Shown here one piece after another: positions 9,596 through 29,931 of a stretch of DNA of 42,126 bases. Location of the stretch: NCBI GenBank assembly GCA_017608995.1, contig JAFCEU010000001.1:1-42126 (forward strand). Reading direction: 5' to 3'. Made by a program: the position numbers and the translations under genes. The stretch's first letter is position 1. Every line of letters starts with the position of its first letter. The notes below the pieces were generated by a model, which did no database searches, had not been told where the DNA came from, and saw nothing but the letters and a program-made list of their open reading frames with translations. Source of the DNA: Candidatus Iainarchaeum sp. GTDB taxonomy: Archaea; Iainarchaeota; Iainarchaeia; Iainarchaeales; DTGL01.

Positions 9596-10270
9596 TTACC
9601 TCAAGCTTAAATTATAAAGTTCAACTTCATCAATTGTTCCGATAAAGCCGCCCATTGTGTCAGAATAAGCTCCAATTACCAAAGGCACACTGCTTGAATT
9701 TAAATTTGAGCTGTTGCCATAAACTTCTCCCTGTTTTTCACCATCAATATAGAATGACAGCTTTTTTTGCGGGCCGTTCCAGACAAGAAGAAGCTCATGC
9801 CAGTTCAAGTCAGGCCCTCTTAAAGCAGGGATATACAGAAGCTTTCCTGTGTTGTCATAAGCTCTTGCAAAAAACTGGCCGCTTGGGCCAACCCCTATAC
9901 AAAACACATCATTCTCAGTAACACCGCCTGTTACATCCCTTGCGATAACTGCCTGATAGCGTTCACCATAATCATCGAGCTTTGCGTTTAATTTGATAGA
10001 GGCCTGATTTGCTCCATTGAGAACTGTTACAGGAAACTCAACAAAGTTATTTCCGCTGAAACTTAAAGCATAGCCCCCTGCCAAACCAGACACCCATTTT
10101 GCTCCAGAAATAGTCCCGGTAATGCCGCCAATTGAATCCCTAACTGTATTGCCGTGGCCCTCGTTAAAAGACCATTTTGCAATCGGCTGAATTTTCTGCA
10201 TTAACATTAGGCCAATTGCTCCTGCTAAGCCAGCTAAACCAGCCAAAATTAACAACAGTTTTTTGTTCAT
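9596..10270 (-). CDS. LamG / concanavalin-A-like lectin-fold protein with N-terminal signal or anchor
   Basis: Hydrophobic N-terminus, then W-x-F-NEGHGNTVRDS...G...GA-W..G..G-AL-F-G, W-H-x-L-x-V-W, LSFYIDG, GxIDEV-x-LYN-x-L: the Laminin_G_3 pattern. Confidence 0.85.
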   Translation of the reverse strand: MNKKLLLILAGLAGLAGAIGLMLMQKIQPIAKWSFNEGHGNTVRDSIGGITGTISGAKWVSGLAGGYALSFSGNNFVEFPVTVLNGANQASIKLNAKLDDYGERYQAVIARDVTGGVTENDVFCIGVGPSGQFFARAYDNTGKLLYIPALRGPDLNWHELLLVWNGPQKKLSFYIDGEKQGEVYGNSSNLNSSSVPLVIGAYSDTMGGFIGTIDEVELYNLSLR

Positions 10271-10293
10271 AACCTATTTTATTAATTCGGAGA

Positions 10294-11109
10294 TTAATAA
10301 ATTTTTCTTTTTACAGCAACCGTTCCGTCCCTATACAAAAGAATTTCTGCAAATGAGTTGGTAGGGAAGGCTCCGTCAACCATTGCCTCAATTGTATAAT
10401 ATTTAATGTTGTTAATGGTTCTTTCATCGCTTAAATGGTTATGTCCCTGGAAGACAGCCGCTACTTTGCCAGAGTTCTCAAAAATCTCTCTAACAGAAGA
10501 AGCATTTTTCACAAAATGTATCCCTGTTCCATCAAGCCTGTGGTGTATAAATACAATTGTCGGAAAGCTGGTTTTTTTTAAATCCTCTTCCAGCCAGGAC
10601 AGTTCAAAGGGCGGGATATAAGATTTGTCAAGAGAATCAGGGTATCCTGTGCCCAGCTCGTTATAGTGGGCATCCAAAACTATGAAATGAAAACCGTTTT
10701 TATCGAAAGAATAATAAGAAGCAGCATACCCTGTTTTCTTCAGCCACTCTGGCCTATTAAACCCGCCATGGTTACCCATTACGTGGTACTTTTCCCCCTC
10801 AAACGAGTTAAATACTTTCACAATGTAGTCCCACTCGGTTTCGTCCCAAAGGCTGTCAATGAAATCCCCGCATTCAATAATGAAATCAGGCAAAAATTCA
10901 TTCATTTCATTGATAAAAGACAACAGTTTTTCATCAGCATCCCTGTAATAGCGGCTTTGGGCTGTAGGCTGGTCAGCCCAGTGAACATCGGTAACTAAAC
11001 CTATTTTTAGAACAGGGACAGGTTTCCTAAAAAGCCTTGAAATATAGTATGCGATTGCAGTTCCGCCGGCTATACCGAGCAAAATATAGATGGTTTTGGA
11101 GCTTTTCAT
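10294..11109 (-). CDS. calcineurin-like metallophosphoesterase with N-terminal TM anchor
   Basis: AGAAGGGAGAAAG SD before internal ATG 11109. Motifs DVHW, GDFID, GNHG, HH...GHNH in order. Confidence 0.85.
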   Translation of the reverse strand: MKSSKTIYILLGIAGGTAIAYYISRLFRKPVPVLKIGLVTDVHWADQPTAQSRYYRDADEKLLSFINEMNEFLPDFIIECGDFIDSLWDETEWDYIVKVFNSFEGEKYHVMGNHGGFNRPEWLKKTGYAASYYSFDKNGFHFIVLDAHYNELGTGYPDSLDKSYIPPFELSWLEEDLKKTSFPTIVFIHHRLDGTGIHFVKNASSVREIFENSGKVAAVFQGHNHLSDERTINNIKYYTIEAMVDGAFPTNSFAEILLYRDGTVAVKRKIY

Positions 11110-11120
11110 CTTTCTCCCTT

Positions 11121-11330
11121 CTACTTTAACCCAAACATCATCAATATGGATAACCCGCCAGCAACAAAAGGAGCAGGTGCCTTGACATTCACCCCCAACA
11201 AGGTCAGAATCAAGGCAAGGCAAAACAGCAAAAGCCATTTATGCCACTTTAACTCATTCTTAATGACGCCAAGCTCCTCATTGATTGTGGAAATGTGGCT
11301 CTTAATTGCCTCTAACTCTTTTTTTGTCAA
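11121..11330 (-). CDS. small membrane protein (coiled N-terminus plus 2 hydrophobic segments)
   Basis: 69-aa ORF, 4-nt overlap with the upstream gene; WLLLFCLALILTLLG and FVAGGLSILMMFGL. Confidence 0.6.
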   Translation of the reverse strand: MTKKELEAIKSHISTINEELGVIKNELKWHKWLLLFCLALILTLLGVNVKAPAPFVAGGLSILMMFGLK

Positions 11331-12415
11331 AATCCCACCTTATTAACTTCTTTCATTTCCAAACTGGCAAACGCCTGCTCCTTGCTTCTGCTGAAGTGGG
11401 TTGCCCAATCGCTCCAGGCACCAAACACCCGGGTTAAGCCTGCTCCATAACACCGAAACAAATATGTATTGGAATCAATCAATTGATAACTTTGCATACC
11501 TGAGTAGCAACAGTCATGTCCAATCGACATGAGAGTATTATGGTCATAGGTGCTGTCCACACAATCCTTGTCACCATACCACCTGCCATTACTCCCTGGG
11601 ACTCCTGTACCAGGGGTTCCTTCTACCGCACCGTAAAAACAACGGTATTGGTTTGCTTTAAAATCCTCTTCTCTGGCTCTGCCCTGCCTTGTTCCCCAAA
11701 TCCCTGGGACTTTGTCCTCATGTCCGGGTGCAGCGCTACCAGGCGGGTTTACATCATTAAAAATATTATAAGCGTCCCCTGTTGAAGTCCCTCTGCCCCA
11801 GCCCTGCAACTTGTAAGCCCTGATTTCAACAGTCGTGGTTCCGGCAGGCAGGCTAATGCTATAAGGCCCGATTTGTTTGTCGATATCCATCAAAAAAGCG
11901 GGAAAAGAATGCAGGTCTAAATTATCTTCTGCAATGCACCCATAGTCCGGATGCGTGCCGGTGCATTTCGTAGTAACTTTTGAGTCATTTCTTGGGCCTG
12001 GGACAAAACCAAAAAATTCGTTGTTAACAAACCAAGCAAACCCAATGAGGCTGTACTGGTTTCGGGTTATGGTTACCTGGGCGGTCCAAATAGCTGAATC
12101 TCCCTTGACTTCCAAAATCGAATGGATTGCCATACCTTCCTCAAGGGATATGTTTGTTTCAGATGACGGCGTTACTTCAACTGTTTTATGGGGCGATTCT
12201 GTAACGGATGTCCCATACAGATTTGAAACCTTTGCTTTTGCAAAAACCTCCCAAGTTCCAAAACCCAGTTCAACTGAATCTGAAACGCTTTCTCCTTTTG
12301 CAACAGAATCCCAAGTTGTGCTTTTCAATAGCGTACCGTTGCCATAGATTTCGATATTAAGGTTTGGTGCAGGAATCCCTTTTGTTACCGTGCCAGTGGC
12401 TATAACTTTTGCCAT
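11327..12415 (-). CDS. hypothetical virion-block protein (362 aa), beta-rich N-half, Cys/Gly-rich C-half
   Basis: Long ORF in the operon; no recognisable family. Confidence 0.7.
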   Translation of the reverse strand: MAKVIATGTVTKGIPAPNLNIEIYGNGTLLKSTTWDSVAKGESVSDSVELGFGTWEVFAKAKVSNLYGTSVTESPHKTVEVTPSSETNISLEEGMAIHSILEVKGDSAIWTAQVTITRNQYSLIGFAWFVNNEFFGFVPGPRNDSKVTTKCTGTHPDYGCIAEDNLDLHSFPAFLMDIDKQIGPYSISLPAGTTTVEIRAYKLQGWGRGTSTGDAYNIFNDVNPPGSAAPGHEDKVPGIWGTRQGRAREEDFKANQYRCFYGAVEGTPGTGVPGSNGRWYGDKDCVDSTYDHNTLMSIGHDCCYSGMQSYQLIDSNTYLFRCYGAGLTRVFGAWSDWATHFSRSKEQAFASLEMKEVNKVGF

Positions 12416-12416
12416 T

Positions 12417-12566
12417 TTAGGTTACCTCTATTTCGATTCTTGCTGCTGGGGCTTCACCTCCATCACCATTAGGGGGCGGTGTAGGTGTGGGTGCTTTCAG
12501 CAAAAACAAGGCTGCTGCTGCGCCAAGCGCACCTAAACCCAGCAAAATCCAATATTCTCTACGCAT
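12417..12566 (-). CDS. small membrane protein with Pro-rich tail (49 aa)
   Basis: ATG 12566; ILLGLGALGAAAALFLL then PTPTPPP; stop 1 nt before the next ATG. Verified codon by codon. Confidence 0.5.
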   Translation of the reverse strand: MRREYWILLGLGALGAAAALFLLKAPTPTPPPNGDGGEAPAARIEIEVT

Positions 12567-12598
12567 TTAAAAAGTATTATTTTCCAATTTAATAAAAT

Positions 12599-12985
12599 TT
12601 ACTGTGGAAACTCTACTTCAAAAGAAACAACAACATTTGCTGCTGCACTGCCGGAACCAGAAACATACTTAACGCTTAATTCGTCTCCAGGCTCCACTGA
12701 AAAAGTATGGCTTGTATCGTTTCCAGTGGTATTGCTTGCACTAACACTGCAGGTCAAAGATTGGTCAGAACCGTTCTTTCTAACCGTAATGGTGTCAGTT
12801 ACGCTTCCGCCAGGGGCCGTTGCCATTTTAACATACAGGTTTTTTGCCGTGCAGTTTCTTGCAACCGGAATCTTTAGCTCTGTTCCCGAAGCTGAGCCAT
12901 TGCCAGGCAAAGGGTAAATAGTTGCGTCACTGCCAACAGCTCCAGAAACGCCAAAAACAAGCAAATTTGTGTGGTTATTGCCCAT
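12599..12985 (-). CDS. hypothetical beta-rich protein (128 aa)
   Basis: ORF in the operon; Gly/Ser/Thr-rich. Confidence 0.7.
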   Translation of the reverse strand: MGNNHTNLLVFGVSGAVGSDATIYPLPGNGSASGTELKIPVARNCTAKNLYVKMATAPGGSVTDTITVRKNGSDQSLTCSVSASNTTGNDTSHTFSVEPGDELSVKYVSGSGSAAANVVVSFEVEFPQ

Positions 12986-12991
12986 TTTAAA

Positions 12992-13237
12992 TCACTCTAT
13001 TTTGCTCCAGTTGATTGATTGAATTAAATCAACAACTTCTTCTTTAATCGCTTTGAGTTTGTTCAAGGCTTTTTGCTTTTCGTCTGGCGGAATAGGCAAG
13101 TCAACCATTTTCCGTGTTATAGGGTGTCTCACTGAAATGGATTCCCCAAGAGAGTCAATGCGCTTTACTTTGCTGATAAGGGTTCCTATTTGTGAAAACT
13201 TGGTTATTAAATCATTTAATTCATTTCTTTTAACCAT
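12992..13237 (-). CDS. hypothetical protein (81 aa)
   Basis: ORF in the operon with an SD-like AGGAGGGAG upstream. Confidence 0.65.
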   Translation of the reverse strand: MVKRNELNDLITKFSQIGTLISKVKRIDSLGESISVRHPITRKMVDLPIPPDEKQKALNKLKAIKEEVVDLIQSINWSKIE

Positions 13238-13268
13238 TTTTTCTCCCTCCTTTAATCAATACGTTCAC

Positions 13269-14171
13269 CTATATTTGATTATGAGCTATTTCAGTATTAA
13301 TTCCCTCGTCTTGAATTTTTATAGGAGCAGTCCCGTTACATATATTTGAAGTAACAATACAATTGGTACCGTAAATAAAAATTTCTACACTGGTGTTGTT
13401 TTTAGAAATATTGCCTACAATTACATTACCATCGGTGTCTGCTGGGTCTGTAAGGGTTCCAATAAAGATACCAACATCGTTATTTTTACAAATGTTATTC
13501 TTAAGAATGCAATTCTTTGCCTGTATAATTATTCCATTATAACCGTTGTTATTGCAATGGTTGCCTGTTATAATGCTATAGTCAGATTTTACCTCCCCAA
13601 TTCCGTCATACTCATGTGTATAACTCTTAATAGAAATTCCTTCAAGATCATAGTCAGTTACTATATTATTTGTAATTATTGTATTAGTTGCCCCCTCACA
13701 ACCAATCCCTGTCCCCCAGCCATTAGTTAATATATTATGTGAAACAAGCACTCTATTGCAGTCGTCTACTAAATAAATAGCAGTATAACGAATCCCATCA
13801 AACCAACACCCAGTAATCATGCTATTTGACACTGTAACGAATCGAATACCCCCATTGCGGTTATCAACTGAATCAGAAAAAAATATATCTTTAATAATTA
13901 TCCCTTCAACATTTTCTGCGTGTAAAAATCGAGAATGTGTTGTTGTTTGAATTTTTGTGGCTTTCCCCGCGCCGATTAATGCCACATTATCCTTATTTAT
14001 TGTAATTGTTGAAGTGATAGTATAAGTCCCCTCTTTAATATAAACCACCCCGCCTTCATCTGGCAAAGCGTCAATTGCAGACTGAATGTCGGTAAAATCG
14101 CCAGTGCCATCAGTAGCTACAACCTTTGTAGCAACAGTTCTTGTTGCCCAAAAACCCATGCCCATTGTCAT
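13269..14171 (-). CDS. right-handed parallel beta-helix (pectate-lyase fold) protein, spike or depolymerase-like
   Basis: GGAGGT SD before ATG 14171. GDFTDIQSAIDALPDEGGVVYIKEGTY, then repeated NN-I/V-x-x-N...GI coils (NNIVTDY, GNHCNNNGYNGIII, NNICKNNDVGIFI). Confidence 0.85.
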   Translation of the reverse strand: MTMGMGFWATRTVATKVVATDGTGDFTDIQSAIDALPDEGGVVYIKEGTYTITSTITINKDNVALIGAGKATKIQTTTHSRFLHAENVEGIIIKDIFFSDSVDNRNGGIRFVTVSNSMITGCWFDGIRYTAIYLVDDCNRVLVSHNILTNGWGTGIGCEGATNTIITNNIVTDYDLEGISIKSYTHEYDGIGEVKSDYSIITGNHCNNNGYNGIIIQAKNCILKNNICKNNDVGIFIGTLTDPADTDGNVIVGNISKNNTSVEIFIYGTNCIVTSNICNGTAPIKIQDEGINTEIAHNQI

Positions 14172-14172
14172 T

Positions 14173-14271
14173 TTAAAGGACCTCCTTTTCTTCGGCTTCA
14201 ATCTTTTCTTTAACCATTTCAACAAACTTCTTCTCATTTTTCTTAAATTTTTTAACCTTTTCAATTTTCAT
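14173..14271 (-). CDS. small Lys/Glu-rich protein (32 aa)
   Basis: GAGGGGAA SD before ATG 14271; stop 1 nt before ATG 14171. Competes with the TTG-initiated N-terminal extension in the ORF track. Confidence 0.4.
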   Translation of the reverse strand: MKIEKVKKFKKNEKKFVEMVKEKIEAEEKEVL

Positions 14272-14277
14272 TTCCCC

Positions 14278-14589
14278 TCACGCCAGCAAAAATCCAATGA
14301 TATAAACCTCAGCAGTGTTCCCAGACTCGCAAATCAAATGGATAGAAGTAATAGGGACATCGCCACTCCACCACGCTTTCGCAGGAATTTTCATTCCGGT
14401 TGCAGTTGTAACAGTTGAGTCAAAGTCAATATAAACAGGGTTAGGGCCGTCATTCAAAATAAGAACACTGTTCATTTCCTGGGAGAAAGATGAAACAACC
14501 TCTGTTGCTCCAATTGTTCCCGGCCTTAAAATCTCTTTGCCCTTTGAAGCAGTGAAAACCTTGATGATTTCTGGCCTAATGCGGGTCAT
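14278..14589 (-). CDS. hypothetical beta-rich protein (103 aa)
   Basis: ATGA-type overlap with the upstream gene. Confidence 0.7.
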   Translation of the reverse strand: MTRIRPEIIKVFTASKGKEILRPGTIGATEVVSSFSQEMNSVLILNDGPNPVYIDFDSTVTTATGMKIPAKAWWSGDVPITSIHLICESGNTAEVYIIGFLLA

Positions 14590-15086
14590 TTCTCCATCTC
14601 CTTTTCAGCTGTCTTAATAACCTTGTGCTCTTCCCACTTTGGCCTCCTTAAAAAACCCCTGAAAAAACAGTTATAGGTCCGGGTTACAGTTGAATTATTC
14701 AAAGCCCAAACCTCTGCTTGCGAATAAGCAATTTTCGGGGGGTCAAAGATAACAGCATGGTCCCCGAAATCCTGCAATGAATCAGTTAAAGTTGGCTCCC
14801 AAACCCCATCAATCCAAATATAATAAGTAGTGTCATCAAAGTAAGTGATGTTAGGATACTGGAAATAAAACTCCCAGCCCTCCGGAACAGTTAGAATGAA
14901 TTGAACCAAATAGCCTGGCGGAACCTCTGCCTCGTTCCAATCGTAAATCGGTTGGTCTCTTTCAATTGCATTCCTCCTGATAAACCAGTCCTTCTGCTCC
15001 TCAAGCAACCTATTCGTTTTCTTCTGCTCTAACAATAAGTCTGCCAGAACAGGCAGCAGCGTTCTCTCTTCAAACCCTTTATCCAT
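14586..15086 (-). CDS. hypothetical protein (166 aa), aromatic-rich beta core
   Basis: GAGGAGGAGAAAG SD before the ATG. Confidence 0.7.
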   Translation of the reverse strand: MDKGFEERTLLPVLADLLLEQKKTNRLLEEQKDWFIRRNAIERDQPIYDWNEAEVPPGYLVQFILTVPEGWEFYFQYPNITYFDDTTYYIWIDGVWEPTLTDSLQDFGDHAVIFDPPKIAYSQAEVWALNNSTVTRTYNCFFRGFLRRPKWEEHKVIKTAEKEMEK

Positions 15087-15194
15087 GCTTTCTCCTCCTC
15101 AAAGCATTCAGTTGAGCCAGTTCCTTTACGTCAGGCTTTCTCACAATAACTTTAAGAGCCATGACAAAATAGTGTTTTCCAAGTTAAAAAATGT

Positions 15195-15587
15195 TTAAGA
15201 TGGAATGCATTCAAAGCCAATGGCTGAAACATAAGCCTTTGCCCCGGTAGCGCTAACCTTCAAAGACTTATTCAAGCCAACGCACACAGCATAGTTAATA
15301 GGCAAGGGAACAGCTTTTTTATCAGCAAACTCCAAATGGGTTTTCACTGTTGAATCAAAAAACACTTCAGCAGAACCAGTCCCGTCCATTGAAATAACCA
15401 ATCCAGCCAACTGAATCGCTTTCCCTGTTTCAGGAGTCCAAACAGTTTCAGTTGAGCCAGCCGCAACCTCCTTATACTTGATCTCGTTTACGGCGACTTT
15501 GCCTGGCCCCAGAAAAACCGAAAGCTGTCCAACAGGATTGACAATTGCCTTCCTTTCCTTGTGGGTTATTTCGATTTGTTTTGCCAT
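15195..15587 (-). CDS. hypothetical beta-rich protein (130 aa)
   Basis: Start abuts the upstream stop (15588). Confidence 0.7.
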   Translation of the reverse strand: MAKQIEITHKERKAIVNPVGQLSVFLGPGKVAVNEIKYKEVAAGSTETVWTPETGKAIQLAGLVISMDGTGSAEVFFDSTVKTHLEFADKKAVPLPINYAVCVGLNKSLKVSATGAKAYVSAIGFECIPS

Positions 15588-16025
15588 CTACTCAACTGCC
15601 CCAGATTGCTCGAGTTTCTCCCAAGCCTCCCCAGCCAAAGCCCTGACTTTCCCTGCTGTTTCCTTATCCATTAAAACGAAGTCCAGGACAATTGAGAAGT
15701 CTTCCTCGCTTGTGTTGGTGTTCTCTACAACGATTTCCCCTTCCTTGCCAGAAATTGCTATATATGGCTTGGGGAAAGTTGGCTCGTTCAATAGCTCTGT
15801 TCCAATCAAAATGTTTTCCTCGAAGTAGTTTCTAACGTTATTGAACCGAAAGTTTATCACATCAGCTGTTATGTCTCCAAACCTGTACTCGTAAACAAGC
15901 CACCACCTGCCGTTTGGAACAAGCAAGGGGATGCGCCTTGTTTCACCACCCTGAATGGTAACCTGATACCTTTTCTGACCAAACTCCCCGAACTGGGACA
16001 GGCTGAAAAGCAACTCGTTTTCCAT
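15588..16025 (-). CDS. hypothetical protein (145 aa)
   Basis: ORF in the operon. Confidence 0.7.
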   Translation of the reverse strand: MENELLFSLSQFGEFGQKRYQVTIQGGETRRIPLLVPNGRWWLVYEYRFGDITADVINFRFNNVRNYFEENILIGTELLNEPTFPKPYIAISGKEGEIVVENTNTSEEDFSIVLDFVLMDKETAGKVRALAGEAWEKLEQSGAVE

Positions 16026-16028
16026 AAA

Positions 16029-16190
16029 CTATTTATCGCTTTCCTTGTTTTTAACTTTGTCGCTTGCGCTTTGTCTTTGTATTTTTTGGGCCAACCGTAG
16101 AAATACAATTGCCTCGTTTCCCTGTAAATTAACCCTGTTTAGAAAAATCAAGAGCTGGTTTATCTCTTGTTCTGATAATTCCAGTTTCAT
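16029..16190 (-). CDS. hypothetical protein (53 aa)
   Basis: ATG 16190; stop 16029-16031 lies 3 nt before the next ATG. Verified by hand; fills an otherwise empty gap in the operon. Confidence 0.5.
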   Translation of the reverse strand: MKLELSEQEINQLLIFLNRVNLQGNEAIVFLRLAQKIQRQSASDKVKNKESDK

Positions 16191-16222
16191 ATTTTCTCTA
16201 ATTATTATTTATTCTTTGGATT

Positions 16223-16444
16223 TTAAAAACCTGCCGCAGCCCTTGCGGCTTCTATGTCAGCAGTGATATCTGCCAGTTTTTTCTCTAATTGTGCCTTTTT
16301 CTGTTCCATTTCTTCAATTGTCATAAATTCTGTTTTTTCCTGTTTCACTGTCATTTTAATTCTATTATGTTCAACTATTCTTCCATCGCTTCCTGGGACA
16401 GATATTTTTCCGAGGTATTCTATTTTTTTGCTTAATTGTTTCAT
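16223..16444 (-). CDS. hypothetical coiled-coil protein (73 aa)
   Basis: AGAGGTGGAA SD before the ATG. Confidence 0.65.
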   Translation of the reverse strand: MKQLSKKIEYLGKISVPGSDGRIVEHNRIKMTVKQEKTEFMTIEEMEQKKAQLEKKLADITADIEAARAAAGF

Positions 16445-16459
16445 AATTCCACCTCTTTT

Positions 16460-21187: not shown

Positions 21188-21638
21188 TCAAAGCCTCCTC
21201 AATTTTTTTTAATAGGTTTTCCTGCCTCTGCCCCATTGTTCCCTCAAACTCTGGCAAAACATCGTCCATGGTATTATTGCGCTTATGCTTCCCCAAATAC
21301 TGTTTCAAAACCCTATCAAAAGGAACAAACAAGTAAATGAAGGAAATCTTCCGACCTGTTTCCCTCCTGATAAACTCAATGGTGTTGTCCTCATCAAATT
21401 TATACCAAAAACGGTTCCACTTAAACCAGTTGTCCACAACAAAACCAGCGTCCCTTTCGTTGAGTTTTTTAATAAAAGCATTCAAAAACTGCTTTTTATT
21501 GTTCTTGCTTTTTTTGTGGTATTCTTCATCAAAATCAACATAACCATAGCCTTTTAAACAAGCGTATTCCTTGGCAAAAGTAGTTTTCCCGCTGCCCATC
21601 AAACCACATACGACAACCAACTCAGCCAATTTTACCAC
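21180..21638 (-). CDS. P-loop kinase-like protein (AAA_33 / zeta-toxin / PNK-like)
   Basis: VVVCGLMGSGKTTFAKEY Walker A near the N-terminus; about 150 aa; GTG start. Confidence 0.7.
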   Translation of the reverse strand: MVKLAELVVVCGLMGSGKTTFAKEYACLKGYGYVDFDEEYHKKSKNNKKQFLNAFIKKLNERDAGFVVDNWFKWNRFWYKFDEDNTIEFIRRETGRKISFIYLFVPFDRVLKQYLGKHKRNNTMDDVLPEFEGTMGQRQENLLKKIEEALNG

Positions 21639-21708
21639 CTTTTTGGAATTTCATTACTGCCTGTTCAAATCCTGTTCCCCAAAGGTTTTATCAGCAAAAT
21701 CTTTTTAG

Positions 21709-22230
21709 TCAAACCTTTTTCACCACGCAAAAAAATTCTTGTTTTTGCCAAGGAGCAACCTCCAGCTCCTGTATTTTTCCAAACTTTTTAACCAATTCTT
21801 CAAATTCCTGTGGAGAAAATTCTTTTAAGTGGTCTGGTGAATGAACCCAGTTTCTTTTGTCTGGAGTGACTATGATTAGCTTTCCTCCTTTTTTCAAAAC
21901 CCTGAACCATTCTTCCAAAGCCTTTTTTGCTTCAATGTGTTCAATTAGGTGGCTTGATATAACAAAATCAAAGCATTCGTCAGCAAAAGGCAGTTTTCTC
22001 GCATCCCACTGCAAATCCGCTTCTGATATAAAGCCCTTTGTTTTGTTGGTTATTCCCCCTTTTTGAATAATATCCACATTTAGGATTTCCCCGCTAACCC
22101 TGCTGTGCCCTCCGCCCAATTCAATTCCAAGACCCTTGCAGTGAGTTAAAATCCATTCCTTTCTTTTCAGTTTGAAGGGAAACTCCTCGTCTGATGGGCT
22201 TTTGTGCAGCTTAAACAAGCAACTCACCAT
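21709..22230 (-). CDS. class I SAM-dependent methyltransferase
   Basis: LGIELGGG (motif I), FDFVISSHLIEHI, VLKKGGKLIIVTP. Start taken at ATG 22230 (the track ORF extends to 22299 inside the upstream gene). Confidence 0.8.
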   Translation of the reverse strand: MVSCLFKLHKSPSDEEFPFKLKRKEWILTHCKGLGIELGGGHSRVSGEILNVDIIQKGGITNKTKGFISEADLQWDARKLPFADECFDFVISSHLIEHIEAKKALEEWFRVLKKGGKLIIVTPDKRNWVHSPDHLKEFSPQEFEELVKKFGKIQELEVAPWQKQEFFCVVKKV

Positions 22231-22948
22231 ATTCAATTGGCTTCGGTTTTTTGCATATCTTTGGTTCACAGCCTTCAGGAAACAGCTCATGGGAAACATG
22301 CTCTAAAACCAGCCCGCTTTCGTCCAAGCATTTTTTTCTGATTTCTACAGGCACGCCGTGAGCTGTCCGCTCTCTCCACCTGTCAACAATAAACCTATAG
22401 GTTGAATACCCGTAGTGAATCACAGTAAAAGGGGCAAGCCCCTGTTTGCCCAATCCTTGCGGAAACAAATCCAAATGCAGGCCCTTTCCAACAGCAAATT
22501 TTAGCCTTCCGTTGTTCCTCCACAGCCTCAAAAATTTACCTGACCCCAAATAATCTTTTCTGGCCCAGCAATCGCTCCTCCACAAAGTTATCTCTGGAAA
22601 CCAATAACCGTCAGCGCCGGAAGCAAACTCACAAAAATCTCTTAAACTGTTCGTTCCCTTTCTATCCAAAACCTCATCGCAGTCAAGCCAGAAGAACCAG
22701 TCAATATCAGGGCGTTTCTTCAAAGCAAACTCTAAAAGCTGCTGCTTGTGCGCTGTCTCATTCAAGAAATCGTTTTCCTTTCCTTCTAAAATCAAGCCGG
22801 TGTATTCTTTTGCGACTTCAACGCTGTTATCTGTGCTCCCATCATCATAAAAAGCGATTTCATCACAATAACGCTGCATATTATCAAGACAGCGTCTCAA
22901 GTTTCCCTTGGATTCCTCATTATAGCATTGGACAAAACCACAAATCAT
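22211..22948 (-). CDS. glycosyltransferase family 2-like
   Basis: FVQCYNEE...FYDDGSTDNS...WLDCDEV; ATG 22948 just after the radical SAM stop. Confidence 0.8.
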   Translation of the reverse strand: MICGFVQCYNEESKGNLRRCLDNMQRYCDEIAFYDDGSTDNSVEVAKEYTGLILEGKENDFLNETAHKQQLLEFALKKRPDIDWFFWLDCDEVLDRKGTNSLRDFCEFASGADGYWFPEITLWRSDCWARKDYLGSGKFLRLWRNNGRLKFAVGKGLHLDLFPQGLGKQGLAPFTVIHYGYSTYRFIVDRWRERTAHGVPVEIRKKCLDESGLVLEHVSHELFPEGCEPKICKKPKPIEYGELLV

Positions 22949-22952
22949 TTCA

Positions 22953-23924
22953 TCACACAAATTTCTGGTGCTTTATGTCTGAGATTAAAATATCCAACAG
23001 TTCATTGTAATGGGAATAATAACACTTATCGCATTTCGAGCCATCAAAACACCTTTGGTTTGCCCAGATTTCCTCTATTTCATCAACAGAGCCCATTTCA
23101 CCCTCATAATCACGCTTCGGGTTCTTGAACATATACTGCGATCCACAACAAGGGTAAAGCTTGCCGTTTGCTCCAACAACAGGTTTCAGCAAGCTTATTA
23201 AGCATTTTTTAGTGCCCTTAGTCCAAGTGCCTCTATCCTGATAAATTACTTTACTATCGTCAACACCAAGCTTTTTCAAAACAAACTTAACTGCCTCCAT
23301 TTTCCCTTCAAGCTTGTTAGCGATAAAAATATCATTAACAAGCCTAACATGTGTGAAATCGTATTCGTTGGCGTACTCAATCATTTTTTGAATCAAAGGC
23401 AAGTTGGGGTTTTCTCCAACAACATATGAAAACGCCCAATCAGTATTCCCTCTAAGCCAAGCCATCTTCAAAGGCCCTTCAATTTCCTCGAATTTTCGAT
23501 GGTCGCCTAAGGAAATTCTGCACCAGCGAAGCATATCTATGGTTTTTTTCGAAAGCCTATTGAGAAGAGTTCCGTTTGTTACTAAGCCCATCTCTATTCC
23601 CATTTCGTGAATTGCCCAAATTAAAGCATCTATGTGATTGTGCTTCAGAGGCTCGCCTCCGCCCGTGATGGTCACACTTTTACATCCAAGCTTCTTAAAT
23701 TTTTGCATTACATCAACAATTTTCTCAAAAGGCATTTCGATTTTTTTGTCCCTTGCACTGCAGGAACAGAAAGGACAGTTCAGGTTACAACGATTAGTTG
23801 GGTTCAATTGAACATGGATTGGCGGAATTTGTTTTCTCTCAGTCAAGTTCTTCATCAGTTCTTTGTTGAAAAACACTTTCACTGGGAATGCGCTGGCCGC
23901 AGTATAGGATTCTTTTTCATTCAT
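22953..23924 (-). CDS. radical SAM enzyme with Cys-rich C-terminal domain
   Basis: GGGAGG SD; ATGA overlap with the upstream GT. NPTNRCNLNCPFCS (CxxxCxxC), GGGEP, and C-terminal ...YPCCGSQ...CFDGSKCDKCYY. Confidence 0.9.
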   Translation of the reverse strand: MNEKESYTAASAFPVKVFFNKELMKNLTERKQIPPIHVQLNPTNRCNLNCPFCSCSARDKKIEMPFEKIVDVMQKFKKLGCKSVTITGGGEPLKHNHIDALIWAIHEMGIEMGLVTNGTLLNRLSKKTIDMLRWCRISLGDHRKFEEIEGPLKMAWLRGNTDWAFSYVVGENPNLPLIQKMIEYANEYDFTHVRLVNDIFIANKLEGKMEAVKFVLKKLGVDDSKVIYQDRGTWTKGTKKCLISLLKPVVGANGKLYPCCGSQYMFKNPKRDYEGEMGSVDEIEEIWANQRCFDGSKCDKCYYSHYNELLDILISDIKHQKFV

Positions 23925-25096
23925 ATTCCAAGCCTCCCATGCGCGTAATCTACAACCAAAGGCCTGTTTTCTATTCTTTTCATCAGCTCTGCCCAAGCGT
24001 CTATTGAACGTTTCCAAGAAAACTGTAATGCATACTTCCTGCCCTTTTCACCCATCTCCTTTCTCATTTCCAGAGAATTATACAATCTGCCCAGACATTC
24101 AGCGAACTCCAGTTCGTCAACTATCACCTTGTCCGCGATCAAGGGAGTAACCCATCTACAAGCCGGCTTTGCAAGCAATCCAGCACCAGACTCTTGCACC
24201 AACTCGGTCAAAGCAGTGCAGTCTGTCGCCACCACTGGAATGCCGCAAGACATTGCTTCCAAAACCGGAAGGCAAAAGCTTTCACCGCGTGAAGCGGTTA
24301 CGAAAACGTCAGCCATGTTATAGAGTTCAGCCATTTGCTTTTCATTGAATCCAGCATCTCTATTGAAGCCTTCAGTGTAAAAAACCTTGTCCGCTATTCC
24401 AAGCCTTTGAGCCATCAACTCTAAGTTTATTCCATCTGATGCAGTGGGATTACAGTGCAAATGCAAAATGGCATTAGCCTTTGAGTTAACCAGAAACAGT
24501 TTGAAGGCATATAACAGCTCGCTTATGCCTTTTTGAAAGCCCTTATTCGTTCCAACGTATAGGAAAACGAATTTTCCTTTATAGCCTGCTTTTTTCTTTA
24601 ATTCACTTTTCTTCTTCTCTGGAAAAGGCCTAAATGTATCCAAATTGACTCCGTGGGGTATTCTGACAACTTTTTTAAGACCATAGTCAAGTAACTGCTT
24701 TTCACTGAACTTTGAAGGCGCAACCAAGACATCTGCTTCCCTGTAAATTGTAGCGAGCTTAGGTGGCACTGGAACGGTATTTACTATTGTATGGCAAACC
24801 CAAGTTTTGTCCTTTATAATTGATTTTGGAATCCAAGAAAACTGGGGCATCCAGTTATCAACCAAAGTGATGATGCAGTCAATATCAAGCTTTTTGACAT
24901 AATAATCAAAAGCATCTTCACCATAAGGGCTGGCAATCAGAGGCAGCCTCCATTTTTCTCTTTGCAAGCCCCTGTTCTGCAAACCAAGCTCGTAAATATT
25001 AAACCCTTTAGCCCTAAGCCCAGTAACAACATTATAGGCAATTTTTCCAAAAGCAGAAGTTATGTTGCTTGAGGCTCCGAAAAAAAGAATGTTCAT
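23921..25096 (-). CDS. glycosyltransferase, GT-B fold (group 1 / GT4-like)
   Basis: ...VTASRGESFCLPVLEAMSCGIPVVATD... E-x7-E region; 391 aa. Confidence 0.9.
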   Translation of the reverse strand: MNILFFGASSNITSAFGKIAYNVVTGLRAKGFNIYELGLQNRGLQREKWRLPLIASPYGEDAFDYYVKKLDIDCIITLVDNWMPQFSWIPKSIIKDKTWVCHTIVNTVPVPPKLATIYREADVLVAPSKFSEKQLLDYGLKKVVRIPHGVNLDTFRPFPEKKKSELKKKAGYKGKFVFLYVGTNKGFQKGISELLYAFKLFLVNSKANAILHLHCNPTASDGINLELMAQRLGIADKVFYTEGFNRDAGFNEKQMAELYNMADVFVTASRGESFCLPVLEAMSCGIPVVATDCTALTELVQESGAGLLAKPACRWVTPLIADKVIVDELEFAECLGRLYNSLEMRKEMGEKGRKYALQFSWKRSIDAWAELMKRIENRPLVVDYAHGRLGI

Positions 25097-25482: not shown

Positions 25483-25496
25483 ATCAAATCACCTTT

Positions 25497-25943
25497 TTAG
25501 AACAGGTTTGGCTCCAGATTCTCTGGAGTCGGCTCCCGCTTACAAGTTAAATATGCCTGGTAGTCAATTGTCCCGCCAGAGTTATTATAGACATTGATAG
25601 AAACACTACTGCTTTCACTAACTTTTGTTATTGGAGCATCAGGCCTCATCTCAATTTTTTGATTATAATTATAAGTGTCAGTTCTTAAACTATGCTGTGT
25701 GCTAGTTCCAACAACAATTGCAAATTCAACATCAGCAGAGCTTGCTTCTACAACAAATAAATAAGGGTAAAGAACTACATTGGCATCGGTTGTAACCGTG
25801 TCTATTATTGTATCCCCTGTTGAAGTAAGTGTTCCACAAGTGCCAACTACAACTATATCACTTGTCTTGGTTTCCCTCAGCCATTTGCCGTTTTGAGGGT
25901 CATATTTCTCATACCTGAGGTACTTAGTTATGTCTCCCGTCAT
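25497..25943 (-). CDS. hypothetical beta-rich virion-block protein (148 aa)
   Basis: ATGA-type overlap with the upstream gene. Confidence 0.7.
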   Translation of the reverse strand: MTGDITKYLRYEKYDPQNGKWLRETKTSDIVVVGTCGTLTSTGDTIIDTVTTDANVVLYPYLFVVEASSADVEFAIVVGTSTQHSLRTDTYNYNQKIEMRPDAPITKVSESSSVSINVYNNSGGTIDYQAYLTCKREPTPENLEPNLF

Positions 25944-26446
25944 CTTATTCCCACCACCGTAATAGGAGTATAAATCTGGGGCTTTTCAGTCAATTCAACC
26001 AAAGCGTAACGCCACCCCACCCAATAAAGCACAGGTGCAATTGCAACATTGGTATTATTAACAATCTGAACATTTGGGGGATAATCTTTGAGAACCCACA
26101 AATTCAAAAACTCTGGAACGTGCCTTGGACTCATATTGTCAGAAAGAGGACCTCCTTCTGGGCTTCTCTGCGTGCCCCACCTGTTTGTTGCGGCAGGCTG
26201 CTTCAAATAAACCTTAACGTTTCCAGAGATTTCAATTCCGTAGATTTGGTAAAGCTGACCGGTTGGAGGATTCAATGAAGTAATCTCAGTATAGCTCTCT
26301 GTTGCACCAGCAGCCAATTCGTCATGCTCATCCTTATAAAAAAGTGTATCACGGTTAACGATTTTGTAAAACTTTTCCGCTCCCGCGATTACAACTCTAA
26401 CATTGTCTAGAATATTAAGCCCTTTTGTCAAGTCTCGTTCAGCCAT
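25940..26446 (-). CDS. hypothetical beta-rich virion-block protein (168 aa)
   Basis: ORF in the operon. Confidence 0.7.
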   Translation of the reverse strand: MAERDLTKGLNILDNVRVVIAGAEKFYKIVNRDTLFYKDEHDELAAGATESYTEITSLNPPTGQLYQIYGIEISGNVKVYLKQPAATNRWGTQRSPEGGPLSDNMSPRHVPEFLNLWVLKDYPPNVQIVNNTNVAIAPVLYWVGWRYALVELTEKPQIYTPITVVGIR

Positions 26447-26487: not shown

Positions 26488-26994
26488 TTACGGATTCAGA
26501 ACCATGCCTCTCTTCTCTACGACCAATCCAATGAAAATCAAGTTCTCTGTTGAATTGGTTGTAGTCGTGTCGTTATAGCCTTCAATTGTTATCGTTGTAT
26601 TCTGGTCAACTGTAATTGGGTCATCTACCCACATTGTGTTGTCCTCTTGCGCTGGAACATGCTCTATTGGCCAAATCCTTGCAACCGAGCCACTTCGGGT
26701 AATCTTCACCCAGTCAATCAAAGGTGTTGACTCAGGGTAACAAATTCCATTGATTGAAATGAATCTGTTGTCTGAAATTGTTTGAGCGTTGACCAGCGTG
26801 TTTGACCCGCTTGTGGTTGTAACACTGAAGTTAAAGCTGTTCAGGCTTGAATCGAGGTCCTCTGCCCTCAAAGGTCGCACAATCAGGTCTTGCCTTGAAA
26901 GACCAAGCTGTGCAGTCGCCTTGGCTAACAACTTGTCCTCTGTTTTTCCAAATGCGTCAAGGGCTCTGCCCCTAAGCTCTTGGTAGAAAGTCAT
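26488..26994 (-). CDS. hypothetical beta-rich protein (168 aa); paralog of 36230..36796
   Basis: Shares ...LG-x-x-R-x-x-L-x-VR-x-L...SGSNT-L/I-VN...I-x-D-x-RFI-x-I-x-GI-x-Y... and C-terminal G-x-VVEK-R/K-GMVL with the other copy. Confidence 0.7.
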   Translation of the reverse strand: MTFYQELRGRALDAFGKTEDKLLAKATAQLGLSRQDLIVRPLRAEDLDSSLNSFNFSVTTTSGSNTLVNAQTISDNRFISINGICYPESTPLIDWVKITRSGSVARIWPIEHVPAQEDNTMWVDDPITVDQNTTITIEGYNDTTTTNSTENLIFIGLVVEKRGMVLNP

Positions 26995-27066: not shown

Positions 27067-27951
27067 TTAGTCCACAAAGACGTCTTTACTGTATGTTCCG
27101 CCGTTTATTGCGAATGCTTGTGGAGCCAACTGCCTTTGGAAATATCTTCCAGAAGTTTCCCCCACTGAAACCGGTGCAATTGTTGCTGTTGGTACTGTTG
27201 CTGCTGCTGCTGTTGGCACCATTGTCTCTTCTGCAACGTCAACTACCTTGGTTAGCATGTGGGTTCCGGCCACGATTGCTGCAAGCTGGGCTGTCGGATT
27301 GCTTTTTAATCCAACCAAGCCGCCCAGTGTGGCAGCTAAGCCTCCGCCAATGTTAATCCAAGTAGAAGCTCGTGCAAAAGCTGGTGCACCTGTTTGACCT
27401 AACTGGACATCCACTTGGTCTGCTAGTACCTCAACAAGCTTTCCGGCAAACTGGGAACCTGCAACGACCCCCACGTCTTTTGCCAAAACCATCTCTTTCG
27501 TCACCTCTCTTTCTTGACCAACTTTTTTTTCAGTAAAAGTATTATTACTTCCAGATTTAAAAACCTTTCTAACTCCTGCATCAAGTTTCTCACAAGCAAT
27601 GCAGTTTTCGGTGTTAAAAGCTGGAACGGCTTTCTCAATAATTTTCCTGATTTCCCTGACCTTCAAAATCGCTCCATCAGGAGAATAACTTGGTAAATTC
27701 TTTCTTAACTCATATAGTTTTTCTTTGACTTTCCTGTATAAAGAGGTTTTCTCTGGCTTTACTGTCGCGCTGTGGCTTATTGCCTCAGATGCTTCTCCTT
27801 CGGCTTCAGCTAAATGCTTTGCGAGGCATGAAACCTGGCTTTCATCGGTTTGTAAATCATCTAAATTCCTTAAATGTGTCTCCAGTTGAAGCAGGTTAAT
27901 GAAAATGTTGTCATTATTATAATCCAGAAAACGCTCTTCTCGGTTATCCAT
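27067..27951 (-). CDS. hypothetical protein (294 aa) with Gly/Ala-rich hydrophobic C-terminal third
   Basis: ATG 27951 overlaps the upstream stop by 8 nt. Confidence 0.65.
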   Translation of the reverse strand: MDNREERFLDYNNDNIFINLLQLETHLRNLDDLQTDESQVSCLAKHLAEAEGEASEAISHSATVKPEKTSLYRKVKEKLYELRKNLPSYSPDGAILKVREIRKIIEKAVPAFNTENCIACEKLDAGVRKVFKSGSNNTFTEKKVGQEREVTKEMVLAKDVGVVAGSQFAGKLVEVLADQVDVQLGQTGAPAFARASTWINIGGGLAATLGGLVGLKSNPTAQLAAIVAGTHMLTKVVDVAEETMVPTAAAATVPTATIAPVSVGETSGRYFQRQLAPQAFAINGGTYSKDVFVD

Positions 27952-28255
27952 TTCCAGCACCAAACAAAAGCTCCTTCATTTCCTTTATTTGTTTTCTCAG
28001 CCAAGCCCTGGCTTCTTTGCTCTCATCAAAAACACTGTATAAGTCAGGCCTGTTGGTTTCAAGCCAAAGCATAACGTTTTTTATATTAAATTCATCTTTT
28101 TGGTTTGAATACATGAAGGCAACGACCTTGCCAATCCGAGCGATGTCCCGCTTATGCTCCAAAAGAAGACCAGCTACTGAAACATCTTCAGCGATAGCTA
28201 ACTGCAAATGGTTTTTCTTCCAGCCATTCAGTAAAGCAAGGATTATAGCATGCAT
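27944..28255 (-). CDS. hypothetical protein (103 aa)
   Basis: ORF in the operon. Confidence 0.65.
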   Translation of the reverse strand: MHAIILALLNGWKKNHLQLAIAEDVSVAGLLLEHKRDIARIGKVVAFMYSNQKDEFNIKNVMLWLETNRPDLYSVFDESKEARAWLRKQIKEMKELLFGAGNG

Positions 28256-28292
28256 AATTAAATAGAGGGCTTTAAAATATTTAATTTTTTCA

Positions 28293-29633
28293 TTAATCCA
28301 TCATCAAATCTTCAGATTTTTTTAATTCAGCTTCAGCAGCCAACTGCTGCTGCCTTTGCCTATACTTTTCCTGTGCTTGCTGAATTGCCTGCGCCTGCTG
28401 GGAAGTAAGCCCTGGCGGCTGTGACATCCGTTGAGCTATTGCTTGACCCATTGGCTCAAGAATCGGGGCCTTTATTTTGTCCACGAAATCAGTTACAAAA
28501 TCTTTTGCCAGCTCACCAGTGGTCTTTTCACCTGAAACGGCTTTAGCACCTTTTTGGTACTGTTCATCTAAAATCTTCATTGCTTGGTCCATGTACTTTT
28601 TTGAAATCTCGTCTTTCCATTTATATGCTTCGGCTGCGTGGCGCATTTGGTTTTTAACTTCTTCTTGTAAATGCTCAAATCGCATCCTGTTGGCTTCATC
28701 CTTGGCTTCTTCTGTTTTTGCTCTTTGTTGCTCTAATCTGTTTTCATGGTCGGCTCTTATTTTCTCCAACTCTGCCTTGCTTTTCTCGGTTAAGGCAAGA
28801 ATATCTTTCCAGTCCCCCCCTTTATTCTGCGCCGCATTAATCTGATTTTGAAGGTTTTGGAACATCTGCTCAAACTTCTGCATTTGGGCCTGCTGGATTT
28901 GAGACTCCCTTAGAGCTTTCAACTCAGCTTGCAGGGCTTGAATCTGCGGGTTCAACGTGTTGCCGTCCCCCTTGTTTTGTCTTTCAAGGAAACTCAAGGC
29001 AATTATTTTATCCAAGTTGATGGCACTTCCTTTTTCTCCAGACAGCGTGGACATTGTTTCCATCGCCACCCGCTGCTTCATCAACTTAATTACATCTCCA
29101 AAATCAATTTCCTTTCCCAAGTCGTTTCCGCCTTTGTGTGTTTTTGGCATAATTTCACCCTCGTTTTCTAAAACATCAGAATGCCTATAGTAATAATCTT
29201 TTCCCCAAGCCCTAATCGCACTTGACAGGTCTTTTGCAAGACCTTGTGCTACGGTCCACTCCGCGATTTTTAACAGGTCGGGGTCAAAGCGCAAGGACTT
29301 CTTTGCTTCAATCCGCTCATCTTCATCAAGCCTTCCTGTTTGTGCCACCTTACCACCTTCACTTTTTTTTTTACTTCCCTTCCAAGGGGAAGCGGGATAT
29401 ACTGCTTCTTCTTGGCTATTAGCTTTCTCTCCAGCAGGGCTCTTTGCTTCTTCTCCTACTGTGCCTGCTTTTGCAGCTTCTTTTGCAGCAAGCTTTGCCT
29501 CATAGTCTTTAATATATTTTGTAATTGTGCCCCCGAAAACATGGTACTTTTTAGCCAACTCTTTTATTGACCAACCCTTATCATGGAGGTCTTTCCATTT
29601 CTTTATTTCAGATTCCTTAAACAACTTAGGCAT
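28293..29633 (-). CDS. HTH-containing, Gln/Glu-rich coiled-coil protein (446 aa)
   Basis: ATG 29633 overlaps the upstream stop. N-terminal ...KGWSIKELAKKYHVFGGTITKYIKDY... is HTH-like, followed by a long coiled-coil and a poly-Q/A tail. Confidence 0.7.
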   Translation of the reverse strand: MPKLFKESEIKKWKDLHDKGWSIKELAKKYHVFGGTITKYIKDYEAKLAAKEAAKAGTVGEEAKSPAGEKANSQEEAVYPASPWKGSKKKSEGGKVAQTGRLDEDERIEAKKSLRFDPDLLKIAEWTVAQGLAKDLSSAIRAWGKDYYYRHSDVLENEGEIMPKTHKGGNDLGKEIDFGDVIKLMKQRVAMETMSTLSGEKGSAINLDKIIALSFLERQNKGDGNTLNPQIQALQAELKALRESQIQQAQMQKFEQMFQNLQNQINAAQNKGGDWKDILALTEKSKAELEKIRADHENRLEQQRAKTEEAKDEANRMRFEHLQEEVKNQMRHAAEAYKWKDEISKKYMDQAMKILDEQYQKGAKAVSGEKTTGELAKDFVTDFVDKIKAPILEPMGQAIAQRMSQPPGLTSQQAQAIQQAQEKYRQRQQQLAAEAELKKSEDLMMD

Positions 29634-29931
29634 CCTGTCCACCAGATGACAAATTAGTTTGGTTTTCTTTAATTGAAGAAACACCTTGCTTTTCATCAGC
29701 ACTTATTTTTGGGTTTTTCTCAAAGTCTTTTGCTAACTTTGCATCCTCTTCAATCTTTCTCTTCTTGTTGGCTACAATGTTAATTAGAGTCTGCAAAGCA
29801 TACTTTGTGACCTCATATTTGTTTGCTTTTGCTAAGAAGCCATTTTCATGCAACCATTTAACTGCTTCCTGCATTTTTTGGTGTTCGTTTGGGTCTAACT
29901 TGGTGGTATACTGCTCCAGAATCTTTACCAT
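29626..29931 (-). CDS. small DNA-binding-like protein (possible RHH), first gene of the minus-strand operon
   Basis: GAGGGATAAT SD before ATG 29931. Confidence 0.55.
   Translation of the reverse strand: MVKILEQYTTKLDPNEHQKMQEAVKWLHENGFLAKANKYEVTKYALQTLINIVANKKRKIEEDAKLAKDFEKNPKISADEKQGVSSIKENQTNLSSGGQDA

Follow-up and report, generated by a model that had tools for sequence, protein, structure and literature searches.

The capsid of Sulfolobus polyhedral virus 1 (SPV1) is composed of vertical jelly-rolls, with VP4 forming the hexamers and VP10 the pentons. The virion also contains an inner lipid membrane and a VP1 nucleoprotein coil with A-form DNA. The Portogloboviridae (SPV1 and SPV2) are known from two Sulfolobales isolates only and have been proposed to resemble the ancestral single-jelly-roll (SJR) double-stranded DNA (dsDNA) viruses, as they were before capsid gene duplication and the gain of a packaging ATPase, none being recognisable in SPV1 (PMC8812541). 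The SPV1 genome is a circular dsDNA of 20 kb that encodes a glycosyltransferase and a methyltransferase (PMC8459092). Within the Singelaviria (Helvetiavirae: Sphaerolipoviridae, Simuloviridae, Matsushitaviridae and the candidate Huracanviridae of ANME-1), two vertical single-jelly-roll proteins form pseudo-hexamers on a membrane and an FtsK/HerA packaging ATPase is encoded beside the capsid genes; their penton protein VP9, as described for HCIV-1, is a jelly-roll with an N-terminal helix contacting the membrane (PMC6414509). Here, a 42,126-nt contig assigned to Candidatus Iainarchaeum sp. (JAFCEU010000001.1; hereafter the window, meaning the whole stretch analysed) is compared with these systems. 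The element it represents is read, with moderate confidence, as a temperate archaeal dsDNA virus with a tailless, probably icosahedral shell of small single-jelly-roll proteins.

The best reading of the virion is portoglobovirus-like and tailless, built of jelly-rolls and possibly containing a membrane, where the roles of the proteins and the shape of the particle are deduced from the genes. The lineage is new, the building principle is not. The original prediction, made from the sequence of the window, had proposed, as a possibility, an undescribed virion architecture or a wholly new morphotype. This was overstated, because the Portogloboviridae already provide a jelly-roll shell without a packaging ATPase, and an SPV1-like single-jelly-roll architecture suffices.

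Jelly-roll proteins in a conserved module

The candidate capsid genes lie in a minus-strand array of 29 open reading frames (ORFs; 9596-29943, 94.6% coding). Relatives were taken from public assemblies and their ORFs clustered across 29 loci of at least 6 kb, which revealed a module of nearly invariant order: p469, p103, p298, SJR-A (in varying copy number), SJR-B, SJR-C, at times a further SJR-A, GT1 and radical SAM. The module genes of the window are as follows, with their occurrence among the 29 loci, in which many of the gene absences fall at contig ends:

28293-29702, minus strand: p469, 446 amino acids (aa) from ATG, an N-terminal helix-turn-helix (HTH) and then a long Q-rich coiled coil; the first of the conserved genes in the module; 16 of 29 loci
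27944-28255, minus strand: p103, small basic protein (isoelectric point 9.0); second conserved gene; 20 of 29 loci
27067-27963, minus strand: p298, candidate membrane-associated assembly protein; 22 of 29 loci
26488-26994, minus strand: SJR-A, 168 aa, N-terminal helix and jelly-roll beta-sandwich (AlphaFold2, Foldseek); 26 of 29 loci, 42 copies, 1-4 per element
25940-26446, minus strand: SJR-B, 168 aa, all-beta jelly-roll (AlphaFold2); the module's most conserved gene, always single-copy; 29 of 29 loci
25497-25943, minus strand: SJR-C, 148 aa, remote relative of the SJR-A sandwich without the N-terminal helix (hhalign); 26 of 29 loci
within 18976-25096, minus strand: GT1 (18 of 29 loci) and radical SAM (12 of 29 loci), the two genes of the glycosylation cluster that belong to the module
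36230-36796, plus strand, apart from the module: SJR-A paralogue (hhalign, 100% to the SJR-A profile), predicted to be membrane-anchored by an N-terminal transmembrane helix followed by a Pro/Ala linker

The AlphaFold2 model of SJR-A, generated from an alignment of its family (103 homologue clusters, none annotated), has a pLDDT of 96.7 and a pTM of 0.90. When compared by Foldseek with 350,542 PDB chains, the best match was the SPV1 capsid structure 6oj0_A, which aligned over the full length with an E value of 1.9e-4, a probability of 1.0 and TM-scores of 0.55/0.52. None of the other matches among the 50 listed rose above a TMq of 0.40; these included a bromovirus coat protein, an HHIV-2 capsid chain and birnavirus VP2. 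The SJR-B family is larger (at least 158 clusters at 90% identity) and better conserved than SJR-A, and its model is all-beta with a pLDDT of 81.6. Its Foldseek matches are mostly viral jelly-rolls, namely polyhedrin, the BMV and CCMV coat proteins, a nodavirus coat protein and HHIV-2 6h82_b, with TM-scores of 0.35-0.46 for the bromovirus coat proteins. Both models match HHIV-2 weakly (TM-score 0.31-0.39), ranking below SPV1. No double-jelly-roll structure occurs among the 50 listed matches of SJR-A and SJR-B, and the capsid candidates, at 148-168 aa, are long enough for one jelly-roll only.

SJR-C returned 28 homologues from a search of 1.84 billion representative proteins. Its profile aligned with that of SJR-A in hhalign over 115 columns (probability 47%, E 2e-4; in a second comparison, probability 57%, E 1e-4), and since the alignment covers the whole SJR-A sandwich, SJR-C is probably a third jelly-roll. 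By profile comparison, SJR-B shows no sequence relationship to SJR-A or SJR-C. The remaining small proteins of the operon, each compared by single-sequence hhalign with the three SJR profiles, gave nothing, the best being 15195 against SJR-B at a probability of 5.5%, and tblastn of SJR-A, SJR-B and SJR-C against phage records and 72,556 plasmid records gave no match. The original prediction had counted at least ten beta-rich proteins in this interval. Modelling supports that description for 26488 and 25940 only, and for 25497 it follows from the profile alignment. Its suggestion of a single-jelly-roll particle fared better, in that two small proteins model as jelly-roll sandwiches, one with SPV1 as top match, and the third is a remote relative. 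Structure prediction had also been proposed there as the means of finding the capsid protein; run on SJR-A and SJR-B only, it yielded jelly-rolls, neither of HK97 nor of double-jelly-roll type.

The remaining conserved genes of the module, p298, p103 and p469, match nothing in Pfam or PHROGs; p298 and p469 also match nothing in PDB sequences, nor p469 in NCBIfam. p298 possesses a conserved Cys/His N-terminal domain, two conserved Gly-rich, moderately hydrophobic segments (~201-220 and ~228-245) and a C-terminus that is near-invariant in the family (...VD). In eight loci (e.g. L038 11220-11684) the Cys/His domain has a further, free-standing paralogue of 152 aa, encoded downstream of the SJR genes. 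In p469 orthologues a CxxC...CxxCG zinc ribbon mostly replaces the HTH, and a long Q/M-rich coiled coil follows either. In one locus (L017 3202-8358) a 5-kb insertion between p103 and p298 encodes two P-loop proteins of 236 and 601 aa that are not conserved elsewhere. The membrane-anchored form of SJR-A is kept in close relatives (homologues P0107, P0113-P0114, P0117-P0120).

The replication genes differ among the relatives, with PolB and a primase subunit in one and a D5-type primase-helicase in another. A fixed morphogenetic module combined with exchanged replication modules is typical of viruses. The module, travelling with unrelated replication systems, therefore behaves like a virus morphogenetic module.

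Between SJR-A and SJR-B, four relatives carry a LAGLIDADG homing endonuclease of 470-490 aa with N-terminal HTH repeats, at the following positions:

L020, 1958-3427
L021, 2294-3763
L027, 2425-3834
L068, 8474-9946

Homing endonucleases tend to settle beside essential, conserved genes.

Missing hallmark genes and the closest virus groups

The first and last 40 nt of the window (1-40 and 42087-42126) are 100% identical, and removal of this terminal overlap leaves a circular or circularly permuted unit of 42,086 bp. These identical ends, and the same genes on a 42,167-bp JGI contig (Ga0366835_1001243), show that the genome in the window is whole, either circular or circularly permuted. Truncation is therefore no explanation for missing hallmark genes. 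About 60 ORFs were compared with Pfam, PHROGs and NCBIfam, and by tblastn with phage records, and none matched a terminase, portal, HK97 or double-jelly-roll capsid protein, or FtsK/HerA. In this respect the original prediction, which had found no recognisable terminase, portal, HK97 or double-jelly-roll gene, holds for a complete genome. No divergent form of these proteins appeared either, the models covering two of about 20 unassigned proteins. The further statement that no ORF of terminase or portal size exists was wrong, as ORFs of 469, 632 and 672 aa are present, matching neither family. Tail tube, tape measure and baseplate families were absent from the Pfam and PHROGs scans, and no conjugation genes occurred among the family-scan matches.

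A Walker-A scan of the window returned the three P-loop proteins named in the original prediction, which are IstB-like (7413), kinase-like (21180) and replicative (38860), together with a chance motif in 26488. Two of them were considered as a packaging ATPase and rejected. The protein at 7413 resembles IstB/DnaC, and its homologues occur in large tailed phages with terminases of their own; that at 21180, kinase-like and of 152 aa, is encoded within the glycosylation cluster and common to only one other locus. Across the 29 related loci, no conserved P-loop ATPase is encoded within ~10 kb of the module. PDB sequences searched with 7413, 38860, 11327, p298 and p469 as single queries gave nothing below an E value of 0.2. 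The 7413-8504 product (plus strand) corresponds to phrog_1250, of unknown function, with homologues in 162 phage records, mostly of large Vibrio, Bacteroides and enterobacterial phages, where they are annotated only as hypothetical.

The Portogloboviridae are alike in several ways. The best structural match of SJR-A, at the level of fold only, is the SPV1 capsid; both have more than one small single-jelly-roll protein (of presumed structural role in the window element), a circular dsDNA genome, a virus-encoded glycosyltransferase and methyltransferase, no recognisable packaging ATPase and a majority of genes without homologues. As for the inner membrane and nucleoprotein coil of SPV1, the p298 hydrophobic hairpin and the membrane-anchored SJR-A offer hints. 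The two also differ in several respects. There is no sequence similarity to the SPV1 capsid chains in the PDB, even with the SJR-A and SJR-C profiles, and the genome is of 42 kb compared with 20 kb (PMC8459092). Three jelly-roll families are conserved here, whereas SPV1 has two (VP4 and VP10). The window encodes its own SF3-like NTPase, PCNA, SSB, Ku, ligase and integrase, none of which is recognisable in SPV1, and has no mini-CRISPR array among the repeats found. Its relatives occur in metagenome-assembled genomes (MAGs) of Archaeoglobaceae, Thermoplasmata and Bathyarchaeota, not of Sulfolobales. The element works most like a portoglobovirus, but it is not assigned to that family because there is no detectable sequence homology, the genome is double the size, the jelly-roll families are three, the replication, repair and integration genes are its own and the apparent hosts are different.

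The Varidnaviria (Bamfordvirae) give no sequence match, and the capsid candidates are sized for a single jelly-roll. Spindle viruses of the Fuselloviridae type share a small, highly hydrophobic alpha-helical hairpin capsid protein throughout their group, whereas the small hydrophobic two-helix ORFs of the window (such as 32440-32625) are not conserved in the 29 related loci. The unclassified circular mobile genetic elements (MGEs) of the ANME-1 mobilome come from what is presumably a similar type of habitat (Laso-Perez et al., bioRxiv 10.1101/2022.07.04.498658 / PMC9894754).

Proposed assembly and alternative explanations

In the proposed assembly, the facet capsomers would be formed by SJR-A, as one or several paralogues, and SJR-B, with one of SJR-A, SJR-B and SJR-C occupying the fivefold vertices. 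The shell would lie on an internal membrane, to which the hydrophobic hairpin of p298 and the membrane-anchored SJR-A paralogue would link it; the paralogue could alternatively act at the host membrane. No packaging motor would be needed, the circular genome being condensed by DNA-binding proteins and the shell forming around it, as has been proposed for SPV1. Candidates for the condensing proteins are p469, which combines an HTH or zinc ribbon with a coiled coil, and the basic p103. Virion proteins may be modified by the products of the adjacent glycosyltransferase, radical SAM and methyltransferase genes, while the fibre, beta-helix and lectin proteins would supply the host-recognition apparatus and the XerA integrase would allow lysogeny. 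The hexamer and penton roles could be divided among the three jelly-rolls in more than one way. SJR-A has the layout of VP9, yet it gives the best match to SPV1 and multiplies; SJR-B is single-copy and the most conserved. As to the membrane-containing particle that had also been suggested at the outset, the p298 hairpin and the anchored paralogue are the only hints in its favour.

Several observations weigh against this assembly. The likeness of SJR-A to SPV1 is structural only, and for so common a fold a TM-score of 0.55 in a model comparison is modest. Carbohydrate-binding modules (CBM35), BcsB and Ena fibres (Ena2A) are also among the SJR-A Foldseek matches, and against BFVD the model gave generic jelly-roll, C1q and carbohydrate-binding matches at a TMq below 0.5. 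The SJR-A and SJR-C profiles found nothing below an E value of 0.2 among PDB sequences, the SPV1 capsid chains included, and the search output does not tell whether chain A of 6oj0 is VP4 or VP10. The SJR-B model is without a specific structural partner (best TM-score 0.46), so that its match to viral coat proteins appears generic. N-glycosylation sequons are not enriched in SJR-A, SJR-B or SJR-C. As the models cover two proteins only, the true capsid protein could lie elsewhere: it could be p298, p469, p103 or a small protein of 12599-18830. The particle, its membrane, the oligomeric state and the glycosylation are all read from genes and models, and the host assignment rests on MAG binning and archaeal-type genes.

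Among the alternatives, the one that survives best, although unlikely, is a truly new morphotype in which the SJR proteins are accessory, serving as vertex, spike, decoration or carbohydrate-binding proteins, and the genome is enclosed by p298, p469, p103 or small hydrophobic proteins, for example in a pleomorphic, spindle or nucleoprotein-coil particle. Jelly-rolls are common in lectins and fibres, and CBM35, BcsB and Ena2A are among the matches of SJR-A; p298, p103 and p469 come close to the SJR genes in conservation and match nothing; the hydrophobic hairpin of p298 is conserved; and several small hydrophobic proteins with two helices, that at 32440-32625 among them, are encoded in the plus-strand block. 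However, a capsid protein is the only specific, full-length structural match of SJR-A among the matches listed, and the SJR genes are the most universally kept of the group (26-29 of 29 loci). Furthermore, no conservation across the group is seen for the window's small hydrophobic hairpin proteins, and the homing endonuclease of four relatives lies between SJR-A and SJR-B, such elements favouring essential genes.

Still less probable is a member of the Singelaviria, of the sphaerolipovirus, simulovirus or Huracanviridae type, whose FtsK/HerA ATPase has diverged beyond recognition. The arrangement of two or three small jelly-roll genes side by side recalls the capsid gene pair of that group, and a tailless icosahedral, membrane-containing architecture is plausible for the window element. 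Both models match HHIV-2 6h82_b, probably the penton VP9, with which SJR-A shares the layout of helix and jelly-roll (PMC6414509), and Huracanviridae of ANME-1, which have capsid proteins of this kind, are known from similar hydrothermal samples (bioRxiv 10.1101/2022.07.04.498658). Against this, the searches of the genome did not find the ATPase that lies beside the capsid genes of that group, and in none of the 29 loci is a conserved P-loop gene encoded near the module. PHROGs and Pfam gave no match to capsid proteins or ATPases of the Helvetiavirae, and the HHIV-2 scores are weak and below that of SPV1.

A non-viral element, such as an integrative plasmid or a vesicle-forming element with jelly-roll, fibre, lectin and glycosylation genes for a cell-surface structure or plasmid vesicle, is improbable to a slightly greater degree. 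The group is absent from IMG/VR and without a viral hallmark by sequence, and the window carries integrase and replication genes as well as an extensive cluster for surface glycosylation. In addition, the ANME-1 mobilome study kept such circular elements among the unclassified MGEs, regarding them as likely plasmids, or possibly as viruses whose structural proteins are unknown (bioRxiv 10.1101/2022.07.04.498658). Yet SJR-A is closest in structure to a virus capsid protein, the replication modules that accompany the conserved module are unrelated to one another, as is usual for viral morphogenetic modules, tail-spike-like beta-helix and fibre genes are present, the family scans gave no conjugation genes, and no relative was found in the 72,556 plasmid records.

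A head-tail virus whose HK97, portal and terminase proteins are too divergent to detect can be set aside as highly improbable: there are suitably sized ORFs without assignment (11327, 27067, 28293), as well as fibre and tail-spike-like genes, but the genome is complete, no protein combines a terminase-type ATPase with a nuclease (TerL being, to our knowledge, normally detectable by Pfam or PHROGs, archaeal tailed viruses included), no HK97, terminase, portal or tail family was matched, the P-loop proteins are of other kinds and the two modelled proteins are jelly-rolls.

To return to the portoglobovirus-like virus, a wider claim can be put forward tentatively, namely that the group is a large unrecognised lineage of archaeal dsDNA viruses, of family rank or well above, with three distinct single-jelly-roll capsid proteins and assembly without a packaging NTPase. 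If this is true, the "ancestral" portoglobovirus-like state, represented by two hot-spring isolates, would be widespread in archaea of sediment, groundwater and hydrothermal settings, and the lineage could be the missing intermediate between SPV1-type viruses and the Singelaviria. With many genomes of a diverse environmental group whose capsid protein is SPV1-like, the ancestral scenario would become testable, and the architecture would extend beyond thermoacidophilic hosts. Virus detection by hallmark genes is blind to the group, which is absent from IMG/VR and without PHROG matches; searches with SJR-A, SJR-B and SJR-C profiles would bring back archaeal viruses that have so far been overlooked.

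Host, adsorption and replication genes

Relatives were found on 130 JGI metagenome contigs, and genomes of the group are of ~40 kb or larger, with contigs up to 75 kb. Neither IMG/VR nor the phage and plasmid collections searched contain the group, and the searchable literature yielded no account of the three-jelly-roll module. The MAGs of relatives are labelled Archaeoglobaceae, Thermoplasmata, Bathyarchaeota and uncultured archaeon, and a single "Deltaproteobacteria" label is probably a binning error. The locus-tag prefixes of the homologues are presumably those of MAG studies of Pescadero and Guaymas hydrothermal sediments. These labels, together with the XerA integrase, the PCNA-type clamp and a match to a Methanobacterium virus, point to archaeal hosts. 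TATA-like boxes, observed visually only, lie 23-30 nt upstream of the first plus-strand gene in the divergent region and are compatible with archaeal leaderless transcription.

The part of the minus-strand array downstream of the module comprises an adsorption region and a glycosylation cluster:

9596-18830, minus strand: variable adsorption region (lectin, metallophosphatase, 362-aa protein, beta-helix, fibre and small proteins)
9596-10270, minus strand: ConA-like lectin fold (Laminin_G_3, E 4.6e-14) with a signal/transmembrane segment
13269-14264, minus strand: beta-helix protein (NosD, Beta_helix and Pectinesterase, E 1e-9 to 2e-11; PHROG tail-spike and tail-collar families)
16460-18478, minus strand: fibre, 672 aa, with 354-nt internal repeats that are 98% identical
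12599, 12992, 14278, 14586, 15195, 15588, 16223 and 18414, minus strand: small proteins without family assignment
18976-25096, minus strand: glycosylation/modification cluster (GT1, radical SAM/SPASM, GT2, methyltransferase, small P-loop kinase-like protein, 150-aa unknown, GT2, GT1)

The fibre, beta-helix and lectin genes had been recognised in the original prediction, and the internal repeats and family matches above confirm them. Beyond the close relative L002, the adsorption region is not conserved in related loci, as is expected for host-recognition genes. The 12599-12985 product (minus strand, 128 aa) is Ser/Thr/Gly-rich and contains six N-x-S/T sequons, at 4.7 per 100 residues the highest density in the genome (shuffle P 0.012), which makes it a candidate glycosylated surface protein; the sequons of 14586 also stand out (P 0.026). 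The several small membrane proteins that the original prediction had placed in the interval do exist, but mostly outside it, in a plus-strand block (29765-33584) rich in such proteins.

Genes for integration, replication and possible maturation lie outside the array:

1410-2300, plus strand: archaeal XerA-type tyrosine recombinase, or integrase (NF040815, 229 bits, cutoff 220)
5183-9382, plus strand: replication/repair block with Ku, a non-homologous end joining (NHEJ)-type ATP-dependent ligase, an IstB/DnaC-like P-loop ATPase (7413-8504) and a PCNA-type clamp (8552-9382)
36799-37149, minus strand: candidate retropepsin-like aspartic protease (Asp_protease_2, E 7e-4, below the Pfam cutoff)
38860-40758, minus strand: replication protein, 632 aa, with a P-loop, SF3-like NTPase; residues 278-401 match a Methanobacterium virus PhiF3 protein

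An SSB-like protein is also encoded; tRNA genes and long att-like direct repeats were not found in the window. Ku and the NHEJ-type ATP-dependent DNA ligase stand side by side (5183-6983, plus strand). Some mycobacteriophages recircularise linear genomes with Ku. By analogy, the pair may point to a linear packaged genome, or may serve the virus in mending breaks in its own DNA. Within the replication gene, five iteron-like copies of TTTAGTGTAGT at 39950-40030, spaced by 10-16 nt, encode an NYTKTT repeat and form a candidate replication origin. The 36799-37149 product may be a maturation protease; it has orthologues in L008, L009 and L068, of which those of L008 and L009 were flagged as Peptidase_A2B, weakly or faintly.

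At 32850-33584 (plus strand), a 244-aa protein with a C-terminal transmembrane anchor and a conserved GGHG...SC motif has counterparts in five related loci. An assignment as a clan-CD cysteine protease, based on the likeness of GHG...SC to a His/Cys dyad, was dropped without Pfam support. Elsewhere in the plus-strand block, a two-gene cassette, encoding a small two-helix hydrophobic protein and a 71-aa protein, is tandemly duplicated (32169-32667), the first copy appearing truncated, and ORF 30720-31094 contains a perfect 48-nt tandem duplication (30833-30928). Small genes on either side of the genome junction (456-543 and 41289-41406) are diverged duplicates of one another. Ten copies of a 15-nt unit (41380-41589) lie in ORF 41376-41708, which encodes a pentapeptide-like repeat protein with a weak match to Pfam Decapeptide.

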